Assembly (NCBI GenBank): GCA_038087875.1
Contig: CM075991.1
Span: forward strand, 2,294,001-2,358,000
From: Malacoraja senta
Lineage: Eukaryota
Direction of reading: 5' to 3'
Length of the DNA: 64,000 bases
The notes below the pieces were generated by a model. It was not told the origin of the DNA. It searched no databases and saw only the letters and a list, made by a program, of their open reading frames with translations. A program made the translations under genes and the position numbers. This document shows positions 13,245 through 64,000 of this stretch, one piece after another. How positions within the stretch are numbered: position 1 is the first letter of the stretch; every line of letters begins with the position of its first letter.

Positions 13245-13680
13245 AAATGCTGCAGTAACTCAGCAGGACAGGCAACATCTCTGGAGAGATGTTTTGGGTC
13301 GAGACCCTTCTTCAGACTGGTGTCAGTGGAGTGGGAGGTACATAGCTAAGGAAGTGTAAGGTGTGAAAATGGGACAAAGGGAATTGGGAGATCAAGGAAA
13401 ATGTAGAATAGATCATTGTTAGTTGGGAAGAGATAATAACAAAGCAAACAGAGATAAAATGTAGTTGGAGACAGTCAGATTGGTTGGAGAACTGGGAAGG
13501 GGGAGTGGATGGAGAGAGAGGGAAAGCTAGGGCTACTTGAAGTTAGAGTAGTCAATGTTCATACCACTGGGGTGTTAGCTGCCCAAGCAAAATATGGGGT
13601 GCTGTTCCTCCAATTTGCGCTGGGCCTCACTCTGACGATGGAGGAGGCCCAGGACAGAAAGGTCAGTGTGCGAATGGGAA
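13245..13680 (-). mobile_element. Penelope-like element 3' fragment (GIY-YIG C-terminus plus pLTR)
   Basis: Minus strand encodes LSVLGLLH.QSEAQRKLEEQH.IFCLGS, followed by a pLTR with a degenerate hammerhead core. Confidence 0.75.
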
Positions 13681-24380: not shown

Positions 24381-24711
24381 AGGGGCCACACGGCTGTTAT
24401 TTTTGGCCATCTTACTCAGTCCCCCTCCGCTCATCAGATGCAGAGGATTCTTCCCATCAATGAAAAATAAAACTGTTATTAGTGTTTAAAAAATGTTGAG
24501 AATCTCTCTCCTGTCAATCAAGCCATGAAGGCCACACCTTTTCCGGTGGGAGGGATTATAAAACCCGGAAGTGTGGGTGTGGCTCAGTCTCTGCATGATG
24601 GGGGAGGGGAGGTCACGGCTCTGTCTGAGCTGTGAATCAACTGAACACACTGAATGACTACTGAACTGTGGGTGTTTTTTTGTGTGGTTTTATGGTGTTT
24701 TTATGGTGGTT

Positions 24712-25140
24712 TCACCCTGCACCCTGAATGTGGTGGCCTTGCACCCTGCATGAAATGGTATGAAACTGCATTTGAATGTGGTGGCCTTGCACCCTGCATG
24801 AAATGGTATGAAACTGCAATTGAATTTGTTGGCCTTCACCCTGCTTGAAATGGTATGAAACTGCACTTGAATTTGGTGGCATTGCACCCTGCTTGAAGTG
24901 GTATGAAACTGCACTTGAATTTGGTGGCCTTGCACCCTGCTTAAAGTGGTATGAAACTGCACTTGAATTTGGTGGCCTTGCACCCTGCTTAAAGTGTTAT
25001 GAAACTGCACTTGAATTTGATGGCATTGCACCCTGTTTGAAGTGGTATGAAACTGCACTTGAATTCGGTGGCCTTGCACGCTGCTTGGAGTGGTCGGAAA
25101 CTGCACTTGAATTTGGTGGCCTTGCACCCTGCTTGAAATG
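24712..25140. repeat. 48-bp minisatellite
   Basis: TGAAATGGTATGAAACTGCACTTGAATTTGGTGGCCTTGCACCCTGCT, about 9 copies. Confidence 0.95.
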
Positions 25141-25419
25141 GAATTTCAAGGAATAGCCGTGAGTCAACTGCCAGCCCACCAGCCATGAGTGAGCTGCCAG
25201 CACATCAGGCTTGAGGGACTGAGCTGCCACCCCAAGAATCCATTTGGCCCACAATGTCCATACTAGCCCTCTGGAGACCAGTCCCTCAGCCCACAACACC
25301 CGTACCAGTGCTCCAGAAAGCCCCCCCCCCCCCACTGGCCACCAATAATGGAATTGGTGGAGAAGTGGAATATTGCGTTGGGGGCCAGCCCTCCCGCGTG
25401 AACATGGGACCCAACAGCT

Positions 25420-37804: not shown

Positions 37805-38370
37805 CTGTGTGCAGTTTTGGTCCCCTAATTTGAGGAAGGACATTCTTGCTATTGAGGGAATGCAGCGTAGGTTCACAAGGTTAATTCCCGGGATGGCGGG
37901 ACTGTCATATGCTGAGAGAATGGAGCAGCTGGGCTTGTACACTCTGCAGTTTAGAAGGATGAGAGGGCATCTCATTGAAACATATAAGATTGATAAGGGC
38001 TTGGACACGCTAGAGGCAGGAAACATGTTCCCGATGTTGGGGGAGTCCAGAACCAGGGGCCACAGTTTAAGAATAAGGAGTAAGCCATTTAGAACGGAGA
38101 CAAGGAAACACTTTTTCTCACAGAGAGTGGTGAGTCTGTGGAATTCTCTGCATCAGAGGGCGGTGGAGGCAGGTTCTCTGGATGCTTTCAAGAGAGAGCT
38201 AGAAAGGGCTCTTAAAAATAGCGGAGTCAGGGGATATGGGGAGAAGGTAGGAACGGGGTACTGATTGGGGATGATCAGCCATGATCACATTGAATGGCGG
38301 TGCTGGCTCGAAGAGCCGAATGGCCTGCTCCTGCACCTATTGTCTATTGTCTATTGTCTATTGTCTCTTG
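37805..38370 (+). mobile_element. CR1 LINE 3' end
   Basis: QFWSPNLRKDILAIE..RRFTRLIPG..LWNSL peptide; (CTATTGT)n tail. Confidence 0.92.
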
Positions 38371-38711
38371 TCTATTGATATGATACAATATGATACGATA
38401 CAATGAACTTTATTCATCCCTGGAGCGAAGTTCTTCTGCCAACACACAAGGTACATGAAAACTTGAAAAATTAAAATTAAATTAAAAGTGAAAAAAAAGA
38501 AAAAGACAAGCGACTGTTGGCTGGCTGCCGTGCACACAGCGCCATCACCGGAATAAACAAACAAACAAACAAATAAATGCAGGCTTATCCCCTGGGGAGA
38601 GGATTCTAAAACTGCCCCCACCCCTTGCCGGGTACCCATTGTCTTCCCCTCCCCCGTTCATGCTCATCGACCGCTGATCGCGAGTCGATTGTGATGTCAA
38701 GGCTCCCGTCG

Positions 38712-39088
38712 CTGACGCTGAGGCCACACCGCCCCCTACGTTGAGGGTCACGCTGACGCCGAGGCCCCACCGCCCCCTACGACGAGGGTCACGCTGCCGC
38801 TGAGGCCCCACCGCCCCCTACGTCGAGGGTCACGCTGCCGCTGAGGCCCCACCGCCCCCTACGTTGAGTGTCACGCTGACGCCGAGGCCCCACCGCCCCC
38901 TGCGTCGAGGGTCACGCTGACGCCGAGGCCCCACCGCCCCCTACGTTGAGTGTCACACTGACGCTGAGGCCCCACCGCCCCCAGCGTCGAGGGTCACGCT
39001 GACGCCGAGGCCCCACCGCCCCCTGCGTCGAGGGTCACGCTGACGCTGAGGCCCCACCGCCCCCTGCGTCGAGGGTCACGCTGACGCC
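38712..39088. repeat. 41-bp GC/CpG-rich minisatellite
   Basis: CTGACGCCGAGGCCCCACCGCCCCCTACGTCGAGGGTCACG, about 9 copies, inside a minus-strand retroposon-like unit (about 38375-39190) ending GGGATGAATAAAG + (TATC-like)n. Confidence 0.95.
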
Positions 39089-39194
39089 ATAACTCCTGCT
39101 GCCGCTGCCGAGGCTACCATCACCGCCGCCACTGAGGCTCCTTCGGCCCAGACAGGCCTGGCTTCTCCGCACTCCCCAAAGGGACTAGAGGGTT

Positions 39195-40814: not shown

Positions 40815-41392
40815 ACAAGATTACGGAGAGTCGGTTTGTCAAGGAGGACTCTCTCTAACTTCTACAGGTGCACAGTAGAGAGCATGCTGACTGGTTGCAT
40901 CGTGGCTTGGTTCGGAAACTTGAGCGCCCGTGAGCGGAAAAGACTACAAAACGTGGTAACACTGCCCAGTCCATCATCGACCTCCCTCCCATCGAGGGGA
41001 TCTATCACAATCGCTGCCTCAAAAAGGCTGGCAGCAGCATCAAGGACCCACACCATTCGGGCCATACACTCATCTCCCTACTACCTTCAGGTAGATGGTA
41101 CAGGAGCCTGAAGACTGCAACGACCAGGTTCGGCAATAGCTACTTCCCCACAGCTATCAGCCTATTAAACTCGGCTCGGACAAAACTCTGAACATTAATA
41201 GCCCATAATCTGTTTATTTGCACTTTATCAGTTTATTTATTCATGTGTGAATATATTTATATAATGCTATATGGACACACTGATCTGTTCTGTATTCGTG
41301 CCTACTATATCCTGGTGTGCCAAAGCAAAGCAAGAATTTCATTGTCCTATCAGGGACACATGACAATAAACTCTCTTGAACTCTTGAACTTG
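40815..41392 (+). mobile_element. Rex1/Babar LINE 3' fragment
   Basis: Closely matches 54236-54806; tail TGACAATAAACT(CTTGAACT)n. Confidence 0.9.
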
Positions 41393-41631: not shown

Positions 41632-44217
41632 AGGAGAAAGATCCCCTGCTTTGTAGTAGCTATAGACCAATCTCACTCCTGAATGTGGACCTCAAAATCC
41701 TTTCTAAAGCCCTTGCACTTCGTCTTCAACGAGTGATGCCCTCTATTATCCGTTGGATCAAACAGGGTTTGTACCTGGCCGACAGTCTTCCCATAATACT
41801 AGGCGTCTCCTTAACATCATTCACTCTTCGAGTAATGAGACCCCGGAGATGGTGGTCTCCCTCGATGCCGAAAAGGCCTTCGACAGGGTCGAGTGGAGGT
41901 ACCTATATGAGGCGATGGATAGGTTTGGCCTCGGTAACAGTTTTATTCTCTGGGTGAGCCTATTATATTCGTCCCCGGTGGCCTCAGTACAAACAAACGA
42001 CATACTGTCGCCCCACTTCACACTTCAGAGAGGTACCAGACAGGGTTGCCCGTTATCTCCACTCTTGTTTGATGTCGCGATAGAACCCCTGGCGATCTGG
42101 TTACGCGCAGAGAAGGGCTTTAAAGGTATTACATGGTTTGACACAACTCATAAAGTCTCATTGTATGCGGACGACCTGCTCCTGTACATCTCGAACCCAG
42201 TCAGTTCTCTCCCTGTGATTATGAATATTTTAGAACGGTTTGGTGCATACTCTGGTTATAAACTTAACTACCAAAAGAGTGAGCTATTACCGATTAACTT
42301 ACCGGCTAAGCAGCTCCCTCGCTCTTTAACCTCATTCAAAAGGGCAGAGGATGGGTTTCGCTATCTCGCCGTTTTTATCACAATACCCTTATCTGATATG
42401 TTCCGCACAAACTTTTTGCCTCTGGTTGAGAAAGCCGAAAAAGATTTTGATCGCTGGTCAGTCTTACCGCTATCCCTCGTGGGCCGGATAAATCTGGTTA
42501 AGATGGTTGTCCCACCCAAATTCCTGTATCTTTTCCAGCATGTCCCCATACTTATCACCAAATCTTTTTTTGACAAATTAGAAAGGACAATATCTAAATT
42601 CTTATGGGGTAGCAAACCGGTCAGAATCCGAAAGGCGATACTGCAGTCGCCTGAGAGTGATGGCGGTTTGGCCCTCCCTGATTTTAGGCGATACTACTGG
42701 GCAGCTAACTTGCAAAAACTCCTGTATTGGATGAATGATGATTGCAAGCACCCACCGATCTGGGTATATATGGAAAAGGCGAGTTCATGTCTCCCGTTGC
42801 GGTCTGTCCTATGCTCCCAACTCCCCCTTTCTATAACATCTGTGGGTGCAGGCCCAATTGTGTCCCTTTCGCTCAAGATATGGAGTCAATTTAGGAAAAA
42901 CCTCGGTTTACAGGGTCCTTCCATCTTGACCCTGCTTAAAAATCACATTTTTAAACCTTCAAGTACAGACCACGCATTTAAAACATGGCATAGCAATGGC
43001 ATCAGTAGTATTAAAAACCTATACAAGGATGGCATCTTCTCATCTTTTGCGGAGCTCTCGTCTAACTACAACCTCCCAAACTCCCACCTTTTTTGGTTTT
43101 TCCAGATTAGGGATTTTGTGAAGAAGACATTTCCCTACTTCCCAAATCGCCCTCCTGAAACCCTGACTGATATCATCTTAGCTTTAGACCCCAATCGGAA
43201 GAAATGCATCTCTATTTTGTATAATTTGCTAGGGTCGGTTTTATTGAAACCTCATACCTCATTAAAAGCTGCGTGGGAGGGAGAGCTGAATACGAAATTA
43301 ACAGACCAGCAATGGGACTATGCCTTGGATTTGATCCACTCTTCTTCCATATGCGCTCGTCATGGCCTAATCCAATGCAAAGTCCTTTACAAAGTCCACT
43401 ACACAAATGCAAGATTAGCTAGAATGTACCCAGCTGTTAATGACACCTGTAACAGATGTAGTCAATCTCCTGCCAACCATAGCCACATGTTTTGGTCTTG
43501 CCCTAAGCTAGCAGCCTTTTGGAGGAGTGCTTTTGAATTGATAAGCAGAGCTTACGACCAGACTATTCTTCCAAATCCAATGTCAGCTATTTTCAGTACC
43601 CCTCCCAATACTAACCTCTCTGTTGCGGTGAAACGGGTCCTAGCTTTTACAACCTTGTTAGCCCGGAGACTGATCTTGCTTAGTTGGAGGCTTACCTGTC
43701 CCCCGACACACGCCCGTTGGATTAAGGAGGTGATTTACAATCTGAAACTTGAAAAACTTAGGTTCTCTCTCAAAGGCTCTACCAAGACATTCCTAGATAC
43801 ATGGAACCCTTTCTTTGAACTGGTTAACTCTCTTAACTTGTCCCCGGACTCGGAAGAGGACTGAGTGTTCTCCATCATCGTTTTGTTCTACAGCAGCTGC
43901 TTTCCCCTTAATCCCCCCCTCCCTACAATTGTCTATTTAGATATATATGTATATATATATTTTTTTATTTTTATTTTTTATTTTTATATAGCACATTTTG
44001 TTTCGTCTATTCTACCATTTGTGTGTGGATGTGTACGTATGTGAGTGTTGTTTGTCCCCGTTTGGCTCCGACCTGACTTGGGTGGGTTGAAGGTGGGTAA
44101 GGGTAGGGGTTTTGAGGATCGCTTACATACTGTTGTACAATTATGCCTTGATTATTACTGTCTGTTATTATTGTATGTATGTAAATTGCCGTGAAATTCA
44201 AATAAAAAGATTTAAAT
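41632..44217 (+). mobile_element. L1-clade LINE, 5'-truncated
   Basis: 14-bp TSD ACATTTTATTGAAA (41618-41631 and 44218-44231); KDP..YRPISLLNVD.KIL, then a frameshift near 41750; 3' UTR with AATAAA at about 44201. Confidence 0.92.
41753..43864 (+). CDS. L1 ORF2 partial: reverse transcriptase plus CCHC zinc knuckle (703-aa open frame, N-terminus absent)
   Basis: QTGF, SLDAEKAFDRVEW, GTRQGCPLSP, YADD, FRYL, GGLALP, CNRC..HMFWSCP motifs. Confidence 0.9.
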   Translation: MDQTGFVPGRQSSHNTRRLLNIIHSSSNETPEMVVSLDAEKAFDRVEWRYLYEAMDRFGLGNSFILWVSLLYSSPVASVQTNDILSPHFTLQRGTRQGCPLSPLLFDVAIEPLAIWLRAEKGFKGITWFDTTHKVSLYADDLLLYISNPVSSLPVIMNILERFGAYSGYKLNYQKSELLPINLPAKQLPRSLTSFKRAEDGFRYLAVFITIPLSDMFRTNFLPLVEKAEKDFDRWSVLPLSLVGRINLVKMVVPPKFLYLFQHVPILITKSFFDKLERTISKFLWGSKPVRIRKAILQSPESDGGLALPDFRRYYWAANLQKLLYWMNDDCKHPPIWVYMEKASSCLPLRSVLCSQLPLSITSVGAGPIVSLSLKIWSQFRKNLGLQGPSILTLLKNHIFKPSSTDHAFKTWHSNGISSIKNLYKDGIFSSFAELSSNYNLPNSHLFWFFQIRDFVKKTFPYFPNRPPETLTDIILALDPNRKKCISILYNLLGSVLLKPHTSLKAAWEGELNTKLTDQQWDYALDLIHSSSICARHGLIQCKVLYKVHYTNARLARMYPAVNDTCNRCSQSPANHSHMFWSCPKLAAFWRSAFELISRAYDQTILPNPMSAIFSTPPNTNLSVAVKRVLAFTTLLARRLILLSWRLTCPPTHARWIKEVIYNLKLEKLRFSLKGSTKTFLDTWNPFFELVNSLNLSPDSEED

Positions 44218-47160: not shown

Positions 47161-48238
47161 CGTTATCTTTCAATATCTCCCCTGACTGTCAGTCTGAAGA
47201 AGGGTTTTGATCCCAAAACATCACCCATTCCTTCTCTCCAGCAATGCTAACTGTCCCGTTGAGCTTGTTTTTGTTTTTTAGTTTTAAAGATACAGCACGG
47301 CAACAGGCCCTTCGGCCTACCGAGTCCGCACCAACCAGCGATCTCCTCACACTTACACTATCCTACACACACTAGGGACAATTTACATTTATATCAAGCC
47401 AATTAACCGACAAACTTGCACGTCTTTGGAGTGTGGGGGAAACCGAAGATCTCGGAAAAGCCCACAAGGTCACGGGGAGAACGTACAAACTCCGTACAGA
47501 CAACACCCGTAGTCAGGATCGAACCTGGGTCTCTGGCACTGGAAGCGCTGTAAGGCAGCAACTCTACTGCTGTGCCCACGGCAGAACAGACTCGATTGAC
47601 TTATTGAGTTACTGTAGCATTTTTTGTCTGTCCACAAGGTGTAAAGTGCCTGGAACACTCATTTGCAGCAACTACCTTCAGAATGGAAATATTGTGCTTT
47701 CTTGCAAATGCTCGATCCCTCCGAATGGCCTACTCCTGCACATATTTGCTATGTTTATATCCCCAGAATCATTTTCGTAAACCTCCTCTGGACCCTCTCC
47801 AATACCAGTACATCCTTTCTGAGATAAGGGGCCCAAACCCGTTCACAATATTCCAAATGTCGTCTGACCAGTGTCTTAACAGCCTCAGCGTGACATCCTT
47901 GCTTTTATATTCTAGTCCTCTCAAAGTGAATGCTAACATTGCATTTCCTCACCCTACAACAACCTGCAAATTTACCTTTTTGGAATCCTGCACCAACACT
48001 CCCAAGGTATGTTGCGCCTCTGATTTCTGAATCCTCTCCCCATTTAGAAAATAGTTCACATTTTGAACTGGAGCAGCATAGATAGAAAATTGGCTGAGTA
48101 GTAATGAAGCTTTGTCGATGGAAAGGGAGGAAGTGTACAATAGAGTTCCTTAGAACAGTTGAGTTGAGTTTATTGTCACATGAACCGAGGTACAGTGAAA
48201 AGCTTATGTTGCATGCTAACCAGTCAGCGGAAAGACTA

Positions 48239-50999: not shown

Positions 51000-51211
51000 A
51001 TATTAGCACCAGACATTTCAAGAGTAAAATAAGGAAACCTTGCTTGCACTAACTCCAACAGACATTTGAAATACTCTTCTGCAATTGGCAGTTGATGTAG
51101 GATCAATATCTACTTTCAAAGCTGAGACAAATTAATTCTTAAATTGTATCATTAAGCTGCATGATCTCACGGATTGGCAAAACAGGCTTGACAGATAAAA
51201 TAGCAGACACA

Positions 51212-51529
51212 TGTGTAGGAAGGAACTGCAGATGCTGGTTTAAACTGAAGATAGACACAAAATGCTGGAGTAACTCAGCTGGGCAGGCAGCATCTCTGGA
51301 GAGAAGGAATGAGTGACATTTCGGGTCGAGACCCTTCTTCAGACTGGTTAGTGATAAGGGAAATGCGAGATATAGACGATGATGTAGAGAGATAAAGAAC
51401 AATGAATGAAAGATATGCAAAAAAGTAACGATGATAAAGGAAACAGGCCATTGTTAGCTGTTTGTTGTGTAAAAATGAGAAGCTGGTGCGAATTGGGTGG
51501 GGGTGGGATAGAGAGAGAGGGAATGCCGG
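51212..51529 (-). mobile_element. Penelope-like element, pLTR half (split by the hAT-type insertion)
   Basis: pLTR with hammerhead-like core on the minus strand (about 51315-51343); joins seamlessly to 62468+ by comparison with the uninterrupted copy at 13500-13565. Confidence 0.8.
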
Positions 51530-51651
51530 CAGGGCCGGCCTTAGGGGGTGCGGGGCCCAATTGGGAACAATTTTATTGAGCCCCAGGTTCCCAGCCAAGG
51601 TCTGTCAGCCCTGTTATTTAGTATATATTATGAAATTGTACACTAAGGTGC

Positions 51652-54600
51652 GGGAGCCCCGGACTTTAAATTTTCCCACGCTGGCTGTGAAACTCCCGAC
51701 CCGAGGATCCCAGGTACGGTACCTGGAAACCCCGGGATGACCTCCAGAGCCGACGGGCTGGATCTCCCAGAAACAATGAAGCTGGAGCTGCTGACTTTGA
51801 AGGTACCCCTGTTCGTTACGGAGCTGGAGCTGCCGTCTGTGAGGGAATCCCCGTTCCAGCGCAGGTTCGCAGAAACAGCAGGTACAGTAAGCAGAGTACC
51901 TGGAAACAAAGGGGAAGCCTCCATTATGTCCGGAAACGTGGCCGATGGGCAGGACTTCAGGTCAGACTGAAGCGCAGGGGACTTCGGCCCCCTCTCCCTA
52001 CTATCCTACTGGCCAACGTACAGTCCCTTGAAAATAAATGGGGGACTTAAGTGCAAGACTGCTTTATCAAAGGGAGCTGAGGGAATGCTCTGTGTTCTGT
52101 TTCACAGAGACATGGCTCACCCCCAGTTCCCCAGACTCAGCGGTCCAGCCTGAAGGGTTCTCCATCCACCGTATGGACCGTACACTGGCATCTGGGAAAG
52201 GGAGAGGAGGGGGCGTCTGCCTCATGGTCAACTCTGCGTGGTGCTCAGACGTGGCAGTCCTGTCCAACTCCTGCTCTCCACACCTCGAACATCTGGCGGT
52301 GAAGTGCCGTCCCTTCTACCTACCGAGGGAATTCACCTCCATCATCCTGACCGCGGTCTACATCCCACCCCAGGCAGACGTCCGTCTGGCACTGGAGGAG
52401 CTGCATGCCGTGGTCAACAAACACCAGACGTCTTACCTCGAGGCATTTACCACCATTGCTGGGGACTTCAATAAGGCAAACCTCAAGAAATCACTCCCTA
52501 CCTTCCACCAACATGTCTCCTGCTGCACCAGAGGATCAAACACCCTCGACCACTGCTACACCACCATCAAGAATGCCTATCGTTCTATTCCTCGCCCTCA
52601 CTTCGGTAAATCCGACCATACTGCCTGCCTCCACTGCTTCTTCCTGCCTTCAGGCAGCAATTGAAGAGCGCACCTCCAGAGGTGAGGACAGTACAGAGCT
52701 GGTCGGGGGGGGGGGGGTGGGGGGGCAGAGGAACAACTCCAGGACTGTTTGGAATCTGTAGACTGGGCAATGTTCAAGGACTCGGCAACGGACCTGAACG
52801 ACTACGCCACAGTCGTTACAGACTTCATTAAGAAGTGTGTGGAGGACTGCATCCCTACAAAAACCTTCCGAGTGTTTCCCAATCAGAAACCTTGGATGAA
52901 CTTTGAGATCTGCACTCTTCTGAAGTCCAGACACCGGGCATTCACGTCCGATGATACAGTAGCCTACAAGAAGTCCAGATATGACCTTGGTAAGGCCATC
53001 AAAAAGGCCAAAAGGGACTTCTGCTCCAAACTGGAGGATGAGACAGATGTTCGGCGGCTGTGGCAGGGCCTGAATGCAATCACCTCCTACAAGGCGAAAC
53101 CAGGAGGCAGCTTGAATGTCGGCGAAACATCACTCCCTGACAAGCTCAATGCGTTTTACGCACGCTTTGATAGGGAGAACACTGATGTGTCTTCCCGAGC
53201 CCCCATTCGCTGTGATGGTATTTCAGTCTCAGTCACAGAGGCCGACGTCAGGAAATCCTTCAGAGGGGTGAATCCTCGAAAAGCGCCTGGACCTGATGGT
53301 ATGTTCTAAAAACCTGTGCGGACCAACTGGGTGGAGTTTTTACGGACATTTTCAACCTCTCACTTCTGAGGTCTGAGGTCCCCACCTGGTTTAAAAGGGC
53401 ATCAATTATACCAGTGCCCAAGAAGAGCAAGGTGACGTGCCTCAATGACTATCGACCTGTGGCACTAATGCCTGTAGTGATGAAGTGCTTTGAGAGGTTG
53501 ATCATGGAGCAAATCAACTCCTACCTCGACAAAAACCTGGACCCACTGCAGTTCGCTTACCGCCACAACAGATCAATGGTGGATGAGATCTCGCTGGCCC
53601 TTCACTCTGCTCTGGACCACTTGGACAACAAAAAACTCATATGTCAGGCTGTTATTCATCGATTACAGCTCGGCATTTAATACAATCATCCCCTCCAAGC
53701 TGGTTACCAAACTCGCAGAACTGGGTCTCTGCGCATCCCTCTGCAATTGGATCCTCGACTTCCTCATTCACAGACCACAGTCTGTTCGTATTGGTGGAAA
53801 TGTGTCAGCCTCGATAACAATCAGCACGGGAGCACCTCAAGGCTGCGAGCTCAGCCCCCTGCTGTACTCACTCTATACTCATGACTGCGTAGCCGGTCAC
53901 AGTGCGAACTCCATCATCAAGTTCGTGACGACACCACTGTTGTCGGACGTATCACTGATGGGGATGAGTCAGCGTATAGAAGAGAGATCGAGCAACTGTC
54001 CATATGGTGCCAGCACAATAACATGGCCCTCAACACTAGCAAAACCAAGGAACTGATTGTGGACTTTGGAAGGAGTAGGATGGGGACCCACAGTCCCGTT
54101 TATATCAACGGGTCAATGGTTGAAAGGGTCAAGAGCTTCAAATTCCTGGGCGTGCACATCTCTGAAGATCTTTCCTGGTCCGAGGAACACTAATGCAATT
54201 ATCAAGAGAGCACATCAGCGCCTCTACTTCCTGAGAAGACTACGGAGAGTCGGTTTGTCAAGGAGGACTCTCTCTAACTTCTACAGGTGCACAGTAGAGA
54301 GCATGCTGACCGGTTGCATCGTGGCTTCGTTCGGCAACTTGAGCGCCCTGGAGAGGAAAAGACTACAAAAAGTAGCAAACACTGCCCAGTCCATCATCGG
54401 CTCTGACCTTCCTTCCATCGAGGGGATTTATCGCAATCGCTGCCTTAAAAAGGCTGGCAGTATCATTAAAGACCCACATCATCCTGGCCACACACTCATC
54501 TCCCTGCTACCTTCAGGTAGAAGGTACATGAGCCTGAAGACTGCAACAACCAGGTTCAGGAATATCTACTTCCCCACAGCCATCAGGCTATTAAACCTGG

Positions 54601-54804
54601 CTCGGACAAAACTCTGATCATTAATAACCCATTATCTGTTATTTGCACTTTATTAGTCTATTTATTCATGTGTGTATATATTTATACAATGGTATATGGA
54701 CACACTGATCTGTTCTGTAGTCAATGCCTACTATGATCTGTGTGCTGAAGCAAAGCAAGAATTTCATTGTCCTATCAGGGACACATGACAATAAACTCAC
54801 TTGA
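51652..54804 (+). mobile_element. Rex1/Babar LINE, near full length, frameshifted APE-RT
   Basis: APE motifs (FTETW, GGGV, VYIPP, AGDFN, LDHCY, SDH) and RT motifs ([35 protein letters not shown]); 10-bp TSD ACTAAGGTGC (51642-51651 and 54805-54814). Confidence 0.93.
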
Positions 54805-54921
54805 ACTAAGGTGCTATGGATTATACACTGTCTTAATCTCTCCTGCTCCCGTTTGACTGTCAGTACCTCCACTGGCTTCCAACCTTTACCGTAGCTGCTA
54901 ATAACCATTAAACTGCATTAT

Positions 54922-55056
54922 GTGATTGGACACAATGCCCTTGGAGAAAGAGGCTGATTGGACGGGAGGAGACCGAATTGTTGATTGGACGGGAATTTTA
55001 AGGCAAGCTGGTTGGTGATTGGACGCAACCCCCTTAGAGACAGCGGTTGATTGGCC
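54922..55056 (-). promoter_or_regulatory. Cluster of five CCAAT boxes
   Basis: TGATTGG with GATTGG starting at 54924, 54956, 54983, 55017 and 55049 (spacing 32, 27, 34, 32). Function is inferred only. Confidence 0.4.
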
Positions 55057-56266
55057 ACCAAATAATCGGGCACAAATTAATTGACAAATAGGAAAATAAT
55101 AAAATCGCTGGTCGGTGTGAACTCAGTGGACTATCTGCACTGTATCTCCAAACTAAACAGTATAACATGCAGGTACATTCATTTAAAATAAAATTCAGTG
55201 ATTATTTCACATAATTTCTCACTGTATCTGACTAATTTCTGTTTAAGACGTTTGGTCTGCCTTCGGCATTGACTCTGAACTAAAAACCTAAACCAGACTC
55301 AATTGTATCATCACATTGGACTCAGTAGACTCACACATCTCTGCATTCAGGAGGCTGCCGTGGTTGGAATCACCGGCTCTGAGACCAGAGTGGGTAAAGT
55401 GACCTGCGATCAATACCTAAGATGATAGCCCTTCTCGATAAAAAAATAGTGAAGCTTTTCACTCTAACCATGATGGCTGGAGCTTCTTGCAAGGTGATCT
55501 ATGACCTCGCTAAATAAATATTGTCGTAACGCTCAGTTGAGGTCAAATGAAGGAGATATTCATTACATTGTTCAGTGGAGCCCATGGATGTGTCACTGAA
55601 AGCAGTGAAGAAAGCAATCTCCACACTGCTTGTCCCCGCGTTTAATGGTGACTTTTAAATTACTTGAAATAAAAGTTAATTTCTCTTTGTACCAAATGTC
55701 AACCGTGCTTCTATTGAAAGAGAATAGTAAGATTAAATGAGAACTTACCAGTTTGAAGTTTGATCTTTATTTTATGAGGAGTTACGTTGGTGATTACGTG
55801 AAGAAGACCAGTCAGGGCGCACCCGCGTCAATCTTCAAAGCAGCGGTATGAAATCACAGACAACACCATCATTGAAGTAACATATTAAGATGATCAACAT
55901 GAGAACTACCATTATGACCTTTTTTCTATGAGAGAGGGTTGGGCGTGGCGGGCACGTAATCACCAACGTAACTCCTCATAAAATAAAGATCAAACTTCAA
56001 ACTGGTAAGTTCTCATTTAATCTTACTATTTTACTTCAGAGTCACGTGAGTGACTACGTGAAGATTTTAAAGCTCTGTGATTTTTATGCCGCAGATCAAA
56101 ATCCTGGCTTCTCACTGCATTGATTGACTCTGAGTATCATCAATAATGCTGTAAACATGACATTGCATATCATGCAAAAACAAAACAGTTCTATTTTTGG
56201 TCATAAAACAACCAATAAACCCTCTTAATTTAGGGCAACAGAATTAAACAGTATTGAAAACAGACT

Positions 56267-57290
56267 TTAAACATTAGCAACAGCACTCAATATTGAGGTG
56301 GCAAACAGCCCTCCATCGGCAATCGGCCGATGGTAGTATTGCTGAAACACAAGTTCATTTTTCCAACCTGCGGCTTTTAATATATGGTCGATGGGAACGT
56401 CCATCGCCCTGGCCGCGGATGTTGCTACTGCGCTAGTGGAATGAGATGTAAACACATAAATGTTAATACCTGGCTGAACCAACTCTTGCTTTAACCACCT
56501 TGAGATAGTCTGAACTGCCACTCTTTTATGTTGGCTTCTTGTAACTGACAAATGATCCTGTTTCTTCTTGTCTTAAAGCCCTTGTGGCTTCAATGTAATG
56601 TAAGATATGTGTCCTTACACATAAACATGGAGCTGTAGGATATGCTGAGAACACAATCTTAAATCCTGTCACACCTGGCCTGCTTTGTTTGAGCAGGTGA
56701 TAAATATAAAACATAACATTTTCTGTAGACACTTTCATTCTATCTAACTGAAGTGTTTGGAAAGTCTGCACTCTCTGTGCTTACACCAATGACATTAGCA
56801 TAGCCAATTTCATGGTTAATTTTAACAAAGTTATACACGTGACAGGGACCGAATGACAAAGCATGTTAAGAACAACGCTTACATCCCAGATTACCATATA
56901 CCTAGGCTTAGGCGGTTTGGAATTAAAGATTCCTTCCATCAACCTAGATATGAGAGGGTGAGAACCTATACTTTGTGTCCATGTACCTATTACAAGCTTT
57001 GCCGACAAAGCACTTCTAGCTGTATTGATAACACTATAGCTAAAACCCTCATCATAATAAAGTGTAGATAAACTCTAACACATTTTCAATAACTACAGTA
57101 TCATATTGAATAGTCTTTTGAACACAATATTGTTCCCATTTAAAAAAAAAAAATCATAAGTCATATACTGCTTTTGAGTACTCTTTCTCCAGGCTGCAGT
57201 GAGTATATCCACCGTTGGCCTAGAAAGTCCTCGACCAATGTAAGGCATTCTTACAAACCTACAAATTAAGAGATCAATACGATCACATAA
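56267..57290 (-). pseudogene. DIRS tyrosine recombinase (fragmented)
   Basis: HPLISRLMEGIFNSKPPKPRY..WDVS.VL, LKQSRPG, TISRWLK, SHST, AAGW..F..YYHRP. Confidence 0.88.
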
Positions 57291-57472
57291 CATAGAAACA
57301 TAGAAAATAGGTGCAGGAGGAGGCCATTCGGCCCTTCGAGGGATGATAATGGATGAACTTAACGCATTACTGGATGCTCCAGCAAATTCCTACTGTTTGG
57401 AACCAGCAAAAGGAGGTTGGATCACTATCTGTAACCTGAAAAGGAACCATGGTTGAATCGGGCAATTTGGTA

Positions 57473-57778
57473 TCACCAAAACCCCTGAAGCGTCATCCTG
57501 CTTGATTTTCTCAAACACCGACCTATGAGGCAGAATGGTGGGAAAATGTACACAAACATATCATCCCAATTTAGTGAAAAAGCATCAATTGCCACAGCCC
57601 CTGGATCTGGTTCCCATGAAACATATTTTGGCCTTCCATATAGAAGTACTATGTTCTTGAACACATCCTGGTTCAACATCCACTCTGTATTATCACGTAA
57701 TTTTCGTGACCTGCCATCTGGTACTACATTAAGTTTCCCTGGCAGATAGATAGCTCCAATCCAAATATCTCTATCCAT
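57473..57778 (-). pseudogene. DIRS RNase H end plus DNA adenine-methyltransferase-like domain (fragment)
   Basis: YLPGKLNV..D..SR then PDPGAVAIDAFSLNW..VYIFPPF. Confidence 0.8.
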
Positions 57779-58099
57779 ACTCCAGGTCCAATTCTATTTG
57801 CCAACCTGTCACATGATAACTATTTGATTCCACCCATGTGATTCATATAAGCAACTGCTGTAGTGTTGTGTATTTTGCACTGCACATGCAAACTAGTTTA
57901 GTTAGTGCCATAAGCCTTGAGTCCATAAAATACTCTTGGTTAATTCCCCATGTTTGCAGAAGCAATGTCCATCTGTCTCCACAGCTGGATCTTGTATCAG
58001 TAGCACCCTACCCAAGTGCTCTGACATCGGTCTGCAAAATCATGGAATCTTGGTCCAATAACACTTTGGAACTACTAGTGGACACATGCTGAATCCACC

Positions 58100-58830
58100 A
58101 TTGTACCTCAGCAACAGCCTCTATTGATAGAAGCATAGGTCTATTATAATGACCCTAATGTATCCTCAGTGCTTGTTCCTTTGACCTTTGTAATTGTAGA
58201 TAATAAAGTTGGCCATATTGAACTGTGGAAATGCTGCAGCAATTTCCCCAGCAGACTCATCACCTGGCTAATTGAAGGCTGTGTGTGAGCAATTAACTTG
58301 ATACAGCTCTTAATTAGCTCTACCCTTTTTTTTTCTTCTTTTTTTTTGCCTGGGCAAGGTCACAATCGTGTTGAATAAGTCTATTGTGAACCCAACTAGT
58401 CAATTTGTGTCACAGGTATAAATTTAGATTTCTCTGGATAGGTTATGAAGCCTAATTTAAGAAAAAAAATGTTTTTTACCAACTGCCACTGATGCTTCAG
58501 CTGTTTCCTTTGATTGTCCTACAATCAAGATATTATCTAGTTAAGCCATGAGTTCATGCCCTTGACTTCTCATCATGCCTAGAATAGGTTTTAACAACTT
58601 TGTAATCCCTCTAGGAGCTGAAGACAAACTATTAGGCAGTGCATTGTATTGCCATAATTGCCCCATCCAGCTGAATTTTAAATCTTCTATCCTGCAAATG
58701 AACAGACACTGAATAATCCCTGCTTGGTCTGGGAAAGATATTGGACACAAACTGATGGCTTTGGTAAACTGCCTTAGCAATTACACCTTTATTACATAAG
58801 CTTGAAAGTTCCAACTGAACTTTCAATTGT
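58100..58830 (-). pseudogene. DIRS reverse transcriptase (deleted, fragmented)
   Basis: FVSNIFPRP; LWQYNALP..LSSAPR.ITKLLKP; *LDNILI in place of YLDD. Confidence 0.75.
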
Positions 58831-58923
58831 TCAGTGATAGTGAAGTCAAACTCCTTTTTGGAACATGTTGCATGGGTAAATCAGAATTTGCATTAAGCTT
58901 TATTTGATATCCTTCAATAACCT

Positions 58924-59667
58924 TCAGTATAAAGATATCTGACGTATCACATTAGATCTGTCTACATGAGAACCAGACCCACTTACCTCCTTACCACCTG
59001 GCATTCTCCCCCGGCCTCGAGCTGGATATCTCACCTTCCCTGGCGGTGCTACAGCCAAACGCCAACTGCGCTGCGTCGTAGCTGGACTCGTCCCTTGCCC
59101 GGACCAGTCTCCTCGCTTATAGGGATACTTCTGCTTTAGTGAATATGTGGTTGCCGTCTTAGCCTCCTCCTCCAGCTCCTTCACCTGCTGTGCGAAATCC
59201 TCGCCAAACAGCTGTGCCGGTTGCACTGTGCCAGGCTGGCAGAGTGAAGCATATTTAGAATTGATGGTTGGTCTAATCGCAGTCTTGCAGAGGCAGTTGA
59301 TCTCAAAGTGGGCACTCCACAATAGCGCCTTTTGTTGTAATTTGTCATGGCCTCTCCATCCACCATCCTGGCAAAGCTCGTTATACCAGATGCCAACAAC
59401 TTTAAACAGGCCACAATTGATTGGGGCTTCATGCTTCCTTACTGTCTCATCCATTGTCAGCTCCTGTAGCTGATGTGAGACTTGGTAATTTATGCTGGTG
59501 GCAAGTTCCTCACCCAGAGGCTCACCAGCGTCCGACGACATGGCAAACCGTGCTGCACACGGTGTCAGCTCTGGCAGCTGCCTGCCCTCCATTTGGAAGT
59601 CATCGGACTCAGGGTCAGAGCGTATCTGCCCTTCTGCACTCACCTCTTGCAAAGAGGGTGCTTTCAA
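58924..59667 (-). pseudogene. DIRS gag-like ORF remnant
   Basis: Lies upstream of RT; KYASLC..LFGEDF.QQVKEL motif resembles DIRS ORF1. Confidence 0.6.
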
Positions 59668-60444
59668 GCAGGCCTCTACTAGGCACTGCCGGCGGAGCCT
59701 TCCCGACGGCCTCCGGCCTGCACAATTCCTCCTGGAGTGTGGCTTTGTGAAGCAGGCCTCTCCAAGGCACTGCCAGCGGAGCCTTCCCTAAGGCTTCCCG
59801 CCTGCACAACTCCTCCTGGAATGTGTCTGTGGAGCAGCCCCTGTATGAGCTGCTCCTTTTGGATAACCGCTGGGTCACGGTATCCTGTCCCCGACGGGAC
59901 TCTCCTGGCCCGACTCTGCCGAGTCAATGCCCCTGACAGACTTAGCTTATGCCGACCGCCCGACTGGCGTTGGCTGTGTACCCGGTTGGGCACTTTCCGA
60001 AGTCTGTCGCCGCACCGCTACCGGCTTGCGACTCCCCAGAGGTGACAGGCTGCCTTTCAGAGGCTGCGCTCCCGCAGCTCTCTCTCTCCTTGTCCGCAGC
60101 AGACCTGCACCGTGATGATTTTTTTCATTGTTCCTGCATTGTAGGGAAAAAACACAGCAACAATTTCTCTACTTTTCTAACTCCTCCAAAGTCTCCCCGG
60201 CTTTGGTGGAGCTGTAATTACTCACCTCCAGGAGGAGCTCCGTCCTCCTGCTGCCGTTCGTGCCAATGCGTCAGACATAATGACGCGCATGCGCCCTGAC
60301 GGGTCTTCTTCACGTAGTCTTCACGTGACTCCGAAATAAAATACAATACACTTCTTTCTTTAACCTTCCGTAATTCAGTTGACTTTTATTTAAAGTGGAA
60401 GATGCAAACATTGTCAGCTCCACCTGGACTTCACCCAGAGTGAC

Positions 60445-60770
60445 TGGGGAGTCCAGAACAAGGGGCCACAGTTTAAGAATAAGAGGGTAGGTCATGTAGG
60501 ACTGAGATGAGGAAACACCTTTTTACCCAGAGAGTTGTGAATCTGGGCAATTCTCTGCCACAGAAGGCAGTGGTGGCCAATTCACTGGATGTTTTCAAGA
60601 GAGAGTTAGATTTAGCTCTATGGGCTAACGGAATCAAGGGATATGGGGCGAAAGCAGGAACGAGGATACTGATTTTAGATGATCAGCCATGATCATATAG
60701 AATGGCAGTGCTGGATCGAAGGGCCGAATGGCCTACTCCTGCACCTATTTTCTATGTTTCTGTTTCTATG
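60445..60770 (+). mobile_element. CR1 LINE 3' end
   Basis: FTQRVVNL.NSLPQKAV..FKRELD peptide; (TTTCTATG)n tail; similar copies at 9328-9507 and 49470-49750. Confidence 0.85.
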
Positions 60771-62022
60771 ACTGATAGAAATGCATGCTCCATTCTTGAA
60801 GGTATCTTGTGCGGGATTTGAAATCCCCGTCGTCATAACGTGCAAATAAAGATGCTCTGCTTTCTTTCCATAGATTATCTGCTCTAGTTTAGTTTAGTTT
60901 AGTGATATAGCACGGAAACAGGCTCTTCGGCCCACCGAGTCCGCACCGACCAGCAATCCCACACACACAAACACTACCCCACACACACTAGTGACAATTG
61001 ACATTTGTACCAAGCCACTTAACCTCCAACCTGTACGTCTTTGGAGACCGGGAGGAAACGGAAGATCTCGTAGAAAACCAATGCAGGTCAAGGGGAAAAC
61101 GTATAAGCTCCGCACAGACAGCACCAGTCATCAGGAAAGAACCCGGGTCTCTGGCGCTGTGAGGCAGCCACTGTACCGCTGCGCCACCTAGCCGAGAAGG
61201 TTTCTTGTGCGAGATTTGAAAGCCTCGTCAAGTCATAATGAACCAACAAAGATGCTCTATTGTCTTTCCATAGATTATCAGTTTAGTTTAGTTGAGAGAT
61301 ACAGCGCGGAAACAGCCCTTCGGCCCACCGAGTCCGCACCGACCCCTGCACACAAACACAATCCTGCACACAGTTCTTCAGACTGAGAATCAGGGGACAG
61401 GGAAACTAGAGGTATGAAAAGATACAGAACAAAGCCCAGAACAGAATGATTTGTTCTGTACCTTTTCTCACCTCTAGTTTTCCTAATAATATGGAAACCT
61501 TTGAACCATTGAAACGAAGATAGACACAAAATGCTGGAGAAACTCGATGGGACAGGCAGCATCTCTGGGTGGGTGACGTTTTGGGTTGAGGCCCTTCTTC
61601 AGACCCTTCAACCATTGAACCAGCACATTGGAAGTCTGTGAAACAGTGCAGGGCAATGCACCTTCTAGTTTTGTCCAGCACATTGGGGAAGTGAGTTATG
61701 CTTTACTCTAAAACCTTGGCAACAAAAGTAATTGACACCCCCACCAACAGAAAGGAACCGCAGAATGTCAATGATTCCGTGAATGCCGAGGCGACAGGGT
61801 GAGAGAGAGGAAGTGAAAGAGCATGAGGGAGCTAGAGAGAGAAGAAATGGGAGCGGGGGAGAGAGAGCACGCGTGCGCGAGAGAGAGAGAGCGAGGGAGG
61901 GAGGGAGAGAGCAAAAGACAGAGAGACACAACGTGGGTCGATGGGTGAATGACTAACCTGCACACCAAGAAGAAGCTCGCGGTCTGAGCTCTCAACCATG
62001 ATGATGAGTTTTAAGAAATTCT

Positions 62023-62192
62023 CAATGTGTCGTCAATGCATCGATCTACATTCCTCAGTAAATGTAATTGTGTTTTGACCAAGTATTAATGACGTCGCTT
62101 TTGAATAAAATTCACAGGGCGTCATTAATACTTGGTCAAAACACAATTACATTTACTGAGGGAATGTGGATCGATGCATTGATGACACATTG
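62023..62192. repeat. Long inverted repeat (about 72-bp arms, about 24-nt spacer)
   Basis: CAATGTGTCGTCAATGCATCGATC..ATTAATGACG pairs with CGTCATTAAT..GATCGATGCATTGATGACACATTG. Confidence 0.92.
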
Positions 62193-62467
62193 TATAACTA
62201 CTTGTTAACTACTGGTTGTTAACAAGTGCTACAGTAGCAGTTAACAAATTGTTTTTGTCTGATGGCCGGTGCAATGGTTTTTATCCATGTTCGTTTAAAA
62301 AACAATCCGTATTTAACAAGGCGAATTTAAAAAAAAAAATTGTATTTAGCAACGCAAATTCGTATTTCCGTACGAAATACGGAAAATTAGCGCGGGGCCC
62401 CCCATTGGCGCGGGGCCCAATTGGGAGCAATCGGTCCAATCGGCTTAAGGCCAGTCCTGAATGCCGG

Positions 62468-62707
62468 GGTTACTTGAAGTTAGAGAAATCAATATTCATA
62501 CCACTGAGCTGTAAGCTGCCTAAGCAAAATATGAGATGCTGTTCCTCCAATTTGCGTTTAGCCTCACTCTGACAATAGAGAGACCTAGGACAGAAAGGTC
62601 AGTGTGGGAATGGGAAGGAGAATTAAAGTGTTTAGCAACCGGGAGATCAGGTTGGTTCAGGCGGACTGAGCGACGGTGTTCAGTGAAGTGATCGCCGAGT
62701 CTGCATT
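62468..62707 (-). pseudogene. Penelope GIY-YIG endonuclease C-terminal fragment (other half of 51212-51529)
   Basis: Minus strand RLGDHFTEHRRSV..LPVAKHFNSPSHSHTDLSVLGL, one frameshift, then QSEAKRKLEEQHLIFCLGSL..GMNIDFSNFK*. Confidence 0.8.
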
Positions 62708-63445
62708 TAAACTAACATATGATTTTGATCCAGTAATGATGGGGGACTGAATTTTAGTTAAGGCTGTGCATGACTTGGAGGGAAATTAGAGGTGATGATA
62801 TTCTCAAAGCTGGCCAGATCATCTGAGAAACAAGTTAAGATGACACTGTCAGTTCCATTCAAAGCAAAGTTATATTGGAGAGATCGACACAAAATGCTGG
62901 AATCTCAGCCCGTTCCGTTGAGTTATTCCAGCATTTTGTGTCTATCTTTGGTTTAAACCAGCATCTGCAGTTCCTTCCTACACAATGTAGAAACAGAGAA
63001 AAATAGGTGCAGGAGTAGGTCATTCGGCCCTTCGAGCCATTCAATATCTAGAATCAGTATCCCGTTCCTGCTTTCTCCCCATATCCCCTGATTCCGTTAG
63101 CCCTAAGAGCTATATCTAACTCTCTCTTGAAATATATATTGGAGAGATGATCTACAGTCATAGCTTCGCATTGGAGATCGACACAAAATGCTGGAGTAAC
63201 TCAGCGGGTCAGGCAGCATCTCTGTCCCGCTGAGTTACTCCAGCATTTTGTGTCGATCTCTCTGGTGTAAAGCAACATCTGCAATTCCTTCCTACACAAC
63301 GTTTCACATTTATTGACACTTCTGCACTAATACAAATGTGCACAATAGTGTGGCTACAGGTAGTGATCACTGCAGTGGAACTCCACAACACTGCTGATGT
63401 ACGCAAAACTTTGATAAAACGACAAGAAGGGTTTTATTACAATGA

Positions 63446-64000
63446 CTCGACTAAGTGGGACCCGTTGGGTCCCAGCATCACACGGGAGGGCTGGTCACCC
63501 AACGCAATATTCCACCTCTCCACCAATTCCAATATTGCTCGCCAGTGGGGGGAGGGGGGGGGGCTTTCTGTTGCGCTAGTATGGGTGTTGTGGGCCGAAG
63601 GTACTGGTTTCCAGAGGGCTAGTATAGACATTGTGGGCCAAATGGATTCTTGGGCTTGCAGCTCAGTCACTGAGGCCTGGTAGTAGTCACTCGGGCCTGC
63701 CAAGCTGGCAGCTGAGAAACTGCCCAAAACAGGTGACAGACTGTGAGAGAGGAGGGGGAGATTATTGGGCTGGCAGTTCAGTCACTTACGGCTGGTGGGC
63801 TGGCAGTTCACTTACTCACGGCTGGTGGGCTGGCAGTTCACTTACTCACGGCTCGTGGGCTGGCAGTGCAGTCACTCAGACCTGGTATGCTGGCAGTTCA
63901 GTCAGTCACCCCTGCTCCCTTCACCCCCCCCCCCCTCTACTCCTTGCCATACCCTTCCCCCCACACATTCAGTGCATCTCCCCACAACCTCCCCCCATGC
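63446..64000 (-). mobile_element. Non-autonomous Helitron 3' portion (runs off the window)
   Basis: Minus strand ends GGGACCC-AAC-GGGTCCC hairpin, ACTTAGT, CGAG|T (variant of CTAG); homologous to 25190-25414; 30-bp tandem repeat at 63767-63910. Confidence 0.72.

Follow-up and report, generated by a model that had tools for sequence, protein, structure and literature searches.

A 10.9-kb hAT unit with nested retrotransposons and repeat debris inside a Penelope-type element of Malacoraja senta

Outline of the hAT unit and its host element

The window analysed here is a 64,000-nt stretch of Malacoraja senta DNA (GCA_038087875.1, contig CM075991.1, positions 2,294,001 to 2,358,000, forward strand). 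Within it, a hAT unit of 10,930 bp lies between exact 8-bp target-site duplications (TSDs) and interrupts a Penelope-type element. Its ends and flanks are:

51202-51529, minus strand: host Penelope-type element, part beyond the stop codon, ending in the left TSD; left flank matches 13512-13530 at 16/19
51522-51529, no strand: left 8-bp TSD, AATGCCGG, exact (8/8)
51530-51651, plus strand: left end of the hAT, with 16-bp terminal inverted repeat (TIR) and subterminal GGGGCCC motif, ending in the first Rex1 TSD (51642-51651)
62444-62459: right TIR
62460-62467, no strand: right 8-bp TSD, AATGCCGG, exact (8/8)
62468-62708, minus strand: host Penelope-type element, covering the last part of the GIY-YIG endonuclease frame, which has one frameshift near 62579

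The original prediction had placed TIRs and an 8-bp TSD 10.9 kb apart, and this outline is confirmed: the TSD is exact and 13 of the 16 TIR positions agree (51530-51545 against 62444-62459). Short TIRs (10-25 bp) with a YARNG terminus are given as a hallmark of the hAT superfamily in the available text of PMC3942097 and PMC3014272. The left TIR fits this terminus and the right TIR fits it at four of five positions. A 23/25 subterminal motif is common to both ends (51547-51571 and 62407-62431, E 9e-4), and three of the four plus-strand GGGGCCC matches in the window sit in the hAT ends. The unit therefore has the 8-bp TSD, the short TIRs and the shared subterminal repeats of a hAT element, while a Pfam search of 18 frames found no transposase ORF such as an autonomous hAT has.

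Over all pairs in the window, ~0.12 occurrences of a TIR plus TSD alone are to be expected, so the case for the ends needs the 23/25 motif and the flanks too. This expectation, and the fact that no contig spans the unit, would suit two separate insertions sharing a TSD by chance. The shared motif argues against that origin, as do the flanks, which together read as one Penelope-type sequence without a shift in register. Compared without a gap to the copy at 13512-13548, they match at 16/19 and 17/18 positions (33/37 bases), which fixes the length of the TSD. The same joint occurs in the related-genome data, which consist of contigs from four runs (X1, X2, X4 and X6) of 23 listed: X1 contigs with a summed depth of 1,796 join 51526 to 62476. 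Separate insertions, named beforehand as the outcome that would overturn the unit, are thus largely refuted by the co-linear flanks, and we consider them extremely improbable. The predicted restoration of a Penelope sequence by excision holds for the co-linearity of the flanks; the copy used for comparison lies one base away from where it had been placed and is not identical.

Part of the left flank (51202-51345) belongs to a family of 26 copies within the window. On the right, the homologues P0121 (above cut-off) and P0122 (below it) align at 62468-62708 and carry PF01541 (Pfam GIY-YIG), and the right flank itself gave no Pfam match. Through these homologues, the host shows the GIY-YIG endonuclease at the ORF end that characterises Penelope-like elements.

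A Rex1-type LINE and a DIRS-type element lie inside the unit

Most of the length of the unit consists of two retrotransposons:

51652-54814, plus strand: near full-length Rex1-type LINE (APE endonuclease and RT, several frameshifts); second TSD at 54805-54814
55723-60343, minus strand: DIRS-type retrotransposon (4,621 bp) with terminal repeats and broken gag-like, RT-like and tyrosine-recombinase frames
57285-57340, minus strand: short CR1/SINE 3' fragment inserted in the DIRS-type element, 1/48 from the window consensus

The LINE (3,163 bp) has its own exact TSD (10/10) at 51642 and 54805, as had been predicted. Pfam searches placed PF03372/PF14529 below cut-off and PF00078 above it, with a match to PF09004 too, and in-frame pieces of 73 and 110 aa are 93-95% identical to P0008/P0009. 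The LINE is a putative Rex1: its APE-RT domains would suit the Rex1/Babar clade, which is normally set by RT phylogeny.

The complete outline claimed for the DIRS-type element was borne out. It has inverted termini, an internal complementary region (55953-56064) that is identical to one end over 78 bases, and a tyrosine recombinase (PF00589, E 0.0074; three homologues carry PF00589). No TSD was found, as expected of DIRS elements, and the RT frames, which are too broken, gave no Pfam match. The strand of the fragment at 57285-57340 was taken from its inverted match to 60716-60761.

The remaining core consists of repeat debris and multi-copy sequence

Subtracting the LINE and the DIRS-type element from the unit leaves a core of 3,146 bp:

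54815-55722, no strand: left interior of the core, multi-copy in related genomes, no protein match
54924-55054, minus strand: five CCAAT boxes (GATTGG on the plus strand), spaced 32, 27, 34 and 32 bp
55104-55158, plus strand: decayed 3' end of a 300-bp tRNA-type SINE, with an 11-bp deletion and 9/55 mismatches (hand count from the alignment)
60447-60774, plus strand: 5'-truncated CR1-type tail, with a 6-bp repeat on both sides (at 60441 and 60769)
60798-60879, no strand: unit U1 of an old 82-84 bp duplication, 70/82 identical to U2
60880-61195, minus strand: full-length ~300-bp tRNA-type SINE with motifs resembling A and B boxes on that strand
61196-61279, no strand: unit U2 of the 82-84 bp duplication
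61278-61372, minus strand: 5'-truncated 3' end of the ~300-bp tRNA-type SINE family
61374-61484, no strand: Penelope-type fragment with an 86-bp hairpin, 80% identical to 6775-6820 and 92% to 47178-47201
61504-61619, plus strand: small Penelope-type element (61514-61609) between exact 10-bp TSDs of its own
61620-62459, no strand: right part of the core, including a GA tract and GGGGCCC motifs, multi-copy
62023-62192: 170-bp palindrome in the right core (z -22.6)
62297-62360: 33-bp subterminal repeats in the right core

The CR1 tail, SINEs, CCAAT cluster and long palindrome that had been read in the unit are all present, with five GATTGG motifs at 27-34 bp and a palindrome of 170 bp. We presume the ~300-bp tRNA-type SINE to be HE1-like; since the SINE lies on the minus strand, the truncated pieces are 3' ends. 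A profile built from 10 copies outside the unit detected the decayed end at 55104-55158 (nhmmer, E 7e-8), and the hairpin at 61374-61484 gives a self-inverted match of E 1e-13.

No transposase was detectable in the core, where neither 18 read-through frames nor six shorter ones matched a Pfam family; the sensitivity of this search is limited, as three long DIRS frames also came through it without a relevant family. Nor was a captured gene found by these searches or by phmmer, run on one of the 18 frames against a large protein library. The phmmer match to P0124 (E 1.3e-9) was rejected as an artefact: its score adds up ten repeats of one 28-bit match, and tblastn found nothing for it in the window. 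A supposed likeness of 55419-55664 to the hAT dimerisation motif found no Pfam match at E 10. Eight Rfam matches (E up to 0.5), all under the gathering score and mostly miRNA models on the palindrome, were set aside as hairpin artefacts.

About 2 kb had been described as unexplained non-transposase sequence. The lack of a detected transposase stands; 55104-55158 and 61374-61484 prove to be repeat debris, 61514-61609 is an element flanked by a 10-bp TSD of its own, and what is left occurs in many copies in related genomes.

These data bear on whether the unit is a true Pack-TIR. In that case its unique interior, the CCAAT cluster for example, would derive by capture from a host gene or promoter and have its single-copy parent at another locus. 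Strictly, a Pack-type element has a traceable single parental source, often genic; its internal sequence has a unique parental copy (>=90%) outside a transposon, and genic or exonic capture is common, not required. The five CCAAT boxes exceed the 0.06 expected in 131 bp at the window rate. Their ~32-bp spacing resembles that of NF-Y promoters, and we counted this likeness for the reading together with the ~2.1 kb of core that has no assigned origin. The Pfam and phmmer results speak against it, and the CCAAT region is the deepest among the listed core rows, as expected for a transposon end. We therefore regard gene or promoter capture as highly improbable.

The core is repeated in related genomes and the DIRS-type element is restricted

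Summed contig depth in the related-genome runs is not copy number, as the tool itself warns. All 12 listed core variant rows are covered in X2 and X6, mostly far above the ~10-60 of single long contigs; of the 12, four drop to single-copy depth in X1 and one to zero in X4. At core site 54903, depth across the four runs is 15,431, 10,043, 85,263 and 5,947, and the ratio of left-end to right-end depth is 0.38, 0.37, 0.60 and 0.40. The variant at 61195 appears in 5-11 contigs of each run. All four runs are rich in Rex1. The DIRS interior bins (58920-60062) reach 407,000-443,000 in X1 versus 3-298 in X2, X4 and X6. The core is thus a repeated family and the spread of the DIRS-type element is restricted. 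Since the core is many-copy in four genomes and the DIRS interior is abundant in only one, the DIRS-type element probably inserted later than the core.

The near-zero DIRS depth in three of the four core-rich genomes, and the TSD of Rex1's own, also weigh against movement of the whole as a block, in which the hAT would have carried full-length Rex1, or Rex1 and DIRS, as passengers (6.3-10.9 kb). Rex1 parts the left TIR and 112 bp from the rest of the left end, which should hamper transposase binding, and no common Rex1-core or DIRS-core junction appears among those listed. In favour of a block, the TSD is intact as are both ends, the small divergences of Rex1, DIRS and core overlap, and the abundance of Rex1 in all four runs makes its distribution compatible with carriage. 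Anolis hobo_AC elements of 9-15 kb still moved, according to the available text of PMC3014272. Taken together, block transposition appears very improbable.

No second full-length member of the hAT family was seen in the window or in the contigs of the four runs. Contig record 23 of X4 departs from the window at 62432 and continues with 367 other letters, in which no second TSD was read. Among the 15 joints listed of 10,079, none skips exactly Rex1 or DIRS; the table is swamped by SINEs, so the missing rows carry no weight. Three motif-scan matches in metagenome contigs (L001-L003) were rejected as family members: they are apparently one locus three times, their likeness to the window is confined to 40-44 bp of the end, and no Pfam family matched any of the six frames of L002:1-3400. 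The motif common to both ends had no match in viral contigs.

SINE debris in the core appears older than the host element

The host Penelope-type element is ~3.4% diverged (4/120 plus 3 of ~85 first- and second-position sites; pooled 7/205, 95% interval 1.4-6.9%), and its raw right flank has 12/128 private differences, eight of them synonymous. Several core SINE scraps are 7-16% diverged, on consensus-based ages that are noisy because subfamily differences are mixed with decay. The full SINE differs from the window consensus at 32/287 positions and the decayed SINE end at 9/55 (p 0.002 against the host for each). The CR1 tail, the small Penelope-type element and U1/U2 are not separable from the host in age: U1 and U2 differ at 12/82 positions (p 0.10), and the 38/293 differences of the CR1 tail become 10/220 when strictly private ones are counted (p 0.58-0.75). 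An age argument from the 13% of the CR1 tail, mostly a subfamily difference, was weakened by this stricter test and dropped.

The debris could also have accumulated locally, if a debris-free hAT of ~2.1-2.3 kb inserted long ago and all SINE, CR1, Rex1 and DIRS sequences landed later. The apparent youth of the host is at odds with this. Outside the unit, four of 45 SINE-type copies lie within 5% of the consensus, from which 0.17 SINE pieces would be expected in 2.3 kb versus at least four seen. Were the site as old as most SINEs, 1.5-2 insertions would be expected, and at least four has p 0.07-0.14, which leaves room for local nesting. So do the private divergence of the CR1 tail, no higher than that of the host, and the ~6-12% divergence from the window of the other five listed core-overlapping contigs. 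One collapsed X6 contig, a single piece, differs from the core at 3/182 positions, with p 0.001 were the copy 7% old. The flanking duplications kept by the CR1 tail, the small Penelope-type element and Rex1 fit local insertion and would persist in a carried master as well. In X4, the sites on either side of the heavily decayed SINE end have depths of 85,263 and 57,394, which also counts against local nesting. We consider this origin possible but doubtful.

In X6, records 30 and 31 bridge the SINE-to-core junctions at 61372 and 61609; these contigs are at single-copy depth and may represent the orthologous site. Because the SINE scraps look older than the host and the junctions are bridged in one genome, the debris was probably carried by the hAT family. 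Of the two origins first proposed, an insertion hotspot and a cargo block, neither fits alone, and the evidence of age and recurring junctions favours a modest cargo.

Discussion

The boundaries and nesting of the unit are clear. We think it rather probable that it is a composite non-autonomous hAT, like the Anolis hobo-N families, into which Rex1 and DIRS inserted afterwards. Using a transposase supplied from elsewhere, a non-autonomous hAT of ~3.1 kb would have moved by cut-and-paste into a Penelope-type end, where 8 bp were duplicated. The family master would already have held the SINE and other repeat scraps, acquired as genomic filler or by insertion into an ancestral copy, and would have spread them passively. 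The Rex1-type LINE would then have inserted by target priming 112 bp inside the left end, with its 10-bp TSD, and the DIRS-type element would have inserted at the site, inflating the copy to 10.9 kb. The present copy is probably now immobile.

The comparisons below follow the available text of the cited papers. Anolis hobo_AC and hobo-N1 to N15_AC are hAT elements with 8-bp TSDs (Novick et al., PMC3014272). The hobo-N families, of 1.3-3.4 kb, carry Penelope, SINE, CR1 and Chapaev fragments, and autonomous hobo copies reach 9-15 kb (PMC3014272). Our element resembles them in TSD, non-autonomous size and repeat-fragment cargo, and the same argument from passengers older than their carrier was made there (PMC3014272). 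It differs in its TIR, which begins CAGG rather than TAGGC, in having no transposase, and in a bulk made up of two near-complete retrotransposons, probably inserted later (PMC3014272). Short CAG-starting TIRs with a GC-rich CGG/CC core, and 8-bp TSDs, also occur in Anolis hAT-N6, N7 and N8_AC and in Tip100, orphan non-autonomous families (PMC3014272, PMC12511174); the three Anolis families are 288-810 bp, versus the 3,146-bp core here (PMC3014272). The Tip group is defined by transposase sequence (PMC3942097), and for an element without transposase the TIR likeness to Tip100 does not establish a clade.

Animal Pack-TIRs likewise hold extra sequence between TIR-element ends, and hAT is their commonest carrier (208/370; Tan et al., PMC8277862). 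Each has an identified unique parental copy; their median size is 224 bp and multicopy ones are rare (4 cases), whereas the recognisable cargo here is repeat debris with no parent identified (PMC8277862). MER6 also spread a SINE-derived piece in a non-autonomous DNA transposon, in that case a mariner-derived MITE of mammals rather than a hAT (Luchetti et al., PMC6887750). We found no description of the present hAT family in the literature searched, which held few subscription papers and had Repbase and Dfam outside its scope.

A pile-up of this kind is ordinary and, in the available text of PMC3014272, already described in a lizard (Anolis), and it carries little weight beyond repeat annotation. 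If, as we judge very unlikely, a ray or skate hAT family moved by cut-and-paste as a non-autonomous unit of 6-11 kb with a full-length LINE on board, joined in one lineage by a complete DIRS, this would be a route by which class I elements move without reverse transcription. The locus probably adds a cartilaginous fish to the cases of composite hATs through which SINE debris spreads. It suggests a relative chronology, from Penelope to hAT, then Rex1 and DIRS, then the SINE piece in DIRS, and may serve as a presence/absence marker among related species.

Boundaries of the unit and its Penelope host

The 8-mer AATGCCGG occupies both 51522-51529 and 62460-62467, immediately outside inverted ends that are identical at 13 of 16 bases. 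The TIRs and 8-bp TSD noted 10.9 kb apart are therefore present, and the TSD is exact. About 0.12 such pairs are expected by chance in 64 kb, so the pair alone was not considered compelling, and the boundaries were accepted because the two ends share a motif (23/25, E 9e-4) and the flanks are co-linear. Removal of the span restores a continuous Penelope, as originally noted: the flanks are in register with the other copy (13512-13548) at 33/37 bases, and the match extends at 86% over 159 bases. The chance expectation leaves a little room for the two ends being separate insertions, but the shared motif and in-register flanks make this exceedingly improbable. Contigs were compared from four sequencing runs of related genomes (X1, X2, X4 and X6); those of X1, summed depth 1,796, connect 51526 directly to 62476.

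The right flank aligns to two protein homologues (P0121 and P0122), both with Pfam GIY-YIG, and rays and skates supplied the best named protein matches (74-80% identity). Judged by these alignments, the minus strand of this flank codes for the end of a GIY-YIG endonuclease. Three metagenome contigs whose DNA looks animal (L002 at 3292-3365, also L001 and L003) have an end motif that resembles the unit's at 86-88% over 40-44 bp; this end type thus occurs outside the present lineage.

Anatomy of the unit

The unit spans 10,930 bp and contains two large elements:

51652-54814, plus strand, Rex1-type LINE, 3,163 bp with one of the two exact 10-bp TSD copies counted in
55723-60343, minus strand, DIRS-type element, 4,621 bp

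What remains once both are subtracted is a 3,146-bp core. Endonuclease and RT domains, together with the exact TSD, bear out the internal Rex1-type LINE. The DIRS likewise has its complete outline: ends, a tyrosine-recombinase remnant, and an internal complementary region with 78 bases identical to one end and ~34/38 to the other. No TSD was found at its borders. The names Rex1, HE1, CR1 and NF-Y are labels that we presume to fit the pieces here. A second, partial DIRS-type end lies at 22374-22771 (82% over 411 bp to 55725-56128). Its bins are deep in all four runs, in contrast to the DIRS interior, so there may be an older, more widely spread derivative that is short or merely related.

Recognisable debris makes up ~1,011 bp of the core, 956 bp of it in 60344-61619:

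CR1 tail
full tRNA-type SINE
truncated SINE end
Penelope-type hairpin fragment
small Penelope-type element with its own 10-bp TSD
55104-55158, decayed SINE end (E 7e-8)

Around 2 kb had been called unexplained non-transposase sequence. Read through in 18 frames, the core matched no Pfam family, a weak test as long DIRS frames likewise lacked a relevant match. For one core frame, comparison with 1.84 billion proteins turned up one match, an artefact. "Unexplained" no longer holds throughout, given the decayed SINE end, the hairpin fragment and the repetition of the core in relatives.

Towards its right side the core contains a near-perfect 170-bp palindrome (62023-62192, z -22.6), perhaps a fold-back element in its own right; one X4 contig (record 22) joins the left arm of the palindrome to upstream core. 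Five CCAAT boxes spaced ~32 bp apart near the left end (54924-55054) are possibly the promoter of a lost autonomous element.

The core is repeated in related genomes

A search with 60344-62600 matched 23 runs, and 14 runs from 8 coded organisms held 0.33-0.51 of the query words. Contigs of four of the 23 were compared with the window at 85% likeness, yielding 1,227 variant rows, of which 40 were displayed, 12 in core sequence. Summed contig depth is no copy number and serves only to separate many from one, with single long contigs at ~10-60 depth as reference.

Summed depth at three core positions in the four runs
54903 (16-45 contigs): 15,431, 10,043, 85,263, 5,947
55514: 1,621, 717, 1,562, 363
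61262: 1,686, 1,008, 4,050, 264

In X1, four of the 12 displayed core rows did not rise above single-copy level; in X4, one of the 12 was empty. Depth peaks near both ends (left-to-right ratio 0.38, 0.37, 0.60 and 0.40), which would be the usual profile for a DNA-transposon family with deleted derivatives. At bin 55110-55490, X4 depth is 36-100 times that of the other runs, as if a single longer derivative had undergone a burst in the X4 organism.

The LINE and DIRS probably did not travel as a block with the hAT

The DIRS interior (bins 58920-60062) reached 407,000-443,000 in X1 and 3-298 in X2, X4 and X6, all three of which hold the core. Contigs demonstrate presence, not absence, and this contrast covers three or more orders of magnitude. 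Because of this, family copies in the X2, X4 and X6 genomes are mostly without this DIRS. Rex1 is abundant in 4/4 runs, so its distribution leaves its timing unfixed and would allow a hAT that moved with full-length passengers; the DIRS interior, near-absent in three of the four runs, makes that highly unlikely, and the position of the exact Rex1 TSD, 112 bp in from the left end, would fit a LINE that inserted locally. No exact skip of Rex1 or DIRS was found among the 15 joints displayed of 10,079, mostly SINE joints.

Some debris appears older than the host

A host element cannot be younger than whatever inserted into it. Divergence of the host Penelope from the window consensus is 4/120 sites. 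In its right flank, 12/128 sites are private differences (9 third-position, 8 synonymous, leaving 3 in ~85 sites); pooled divergence is 3.4% (1.4-6.9%). The core is similarly close to one collapsed X6 contig of depth 304, with 3/182 sites differing. The full SINE (32/287 from consensus, 16% from the nearest window copy) and the decayed SINE end (9/55 from consensus) both appear older than the host (p 0.002 each). Of 45 SINE-type copies elsewhere in the window, just 4 differ from consensus by no more than 5%; a young site would accordingly be expected to gain ~0.17 such pieces in 2.3 kb.

These results argue against pure local nesting, in which debris inserted at the site after the hAT arrived. 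In its favour, the CR1 tail (10/220 strictly private differences) is by that test no older than the host, nor are the small Penelope-type element (8/86) and truncated SINE end (6/93) significantly so. At a site dating back as far as most SINEs do, four insertions would be unremarkable (p 0.07-0.14). Apart from the collapsed X6 contig, the displayed core-overlapping contigs, five in number, differ from the window by ~6-12%. We regard local nesting as possible but the less likely course.

An 82-84 bp unit flanks the full SINE on both sides (60798-61279; 70/82 identical). It may have arisen by tandem duplication long ago or as a target duplication of exceptional length. Its 12 differing sites give p 0.10 against the host and 0.015 against 3/182. 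On the side of carried debris, X6 records 30 and 31 span SINE-to-core junctions, but at single-copy depth, and may represent the orthologous site; a variant at SINE boundary 61195 occurs in 5-11 contigs in every run.

On balance, we favour a composite 3.1-kb non-autonomous hAT moved here by a transposase from elsewhere. Transposase encoded elsewhere would have inserted the composite into the Penelope, and Rex1 and DIRS would then have inserted into the copy at this site. The original choice between an insertion hotspot and cargo moved as a block is thus divided: modest SINE debris was probably carried, but the DIRS was probably not part of a block.

Other repeats in the window

A 718-codon open frame (41708-43861) just past a second Rex1-type 3' end (40817-41382) reads like a LINE reverse transcriptase. 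Two CR1-type tails (8904-9296 and 37969-38361) are 97-98% identical, far closer than other copies, so that either they were duplicated locally or the family had a burst not long ago. Minisatellite arrays are as follows:

1896-2138, 27-bp unit
24682-25160, 48-bp unit
38669-39170, 41-bp unit
63766-63909, 30-bp unit

Relation to known composite hATs

Anolis hobo_AC elements (9-15 kb) and 15 non-autonomous families of 1.3-3.4 kb have CR1, SINE, Penelope and Chapaev fragments inside (PMC3014272). The Anolis orphan families hAT-N6 to N8 have TIRs similar to those of the unit (PMC3014272). MER6 is a Mariner MITE with a SINE domain aboard (PMC6887750). Tip100 has an 11-bp TIR beginning CAGGG (PMC12511174), but elements are assigned to the Tip group on the phylogeny of their transposases (PMC3942097). 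For animal Pack-TIRs the parental source must be traceable, and they are short elements that seldom become multicopy (PMC8277862); that the unit is a true Pack-TIR is very improbable. The unit, whose hAT family had no published description in the papers searched, is probably a further example of an already known kind of composite hAT.
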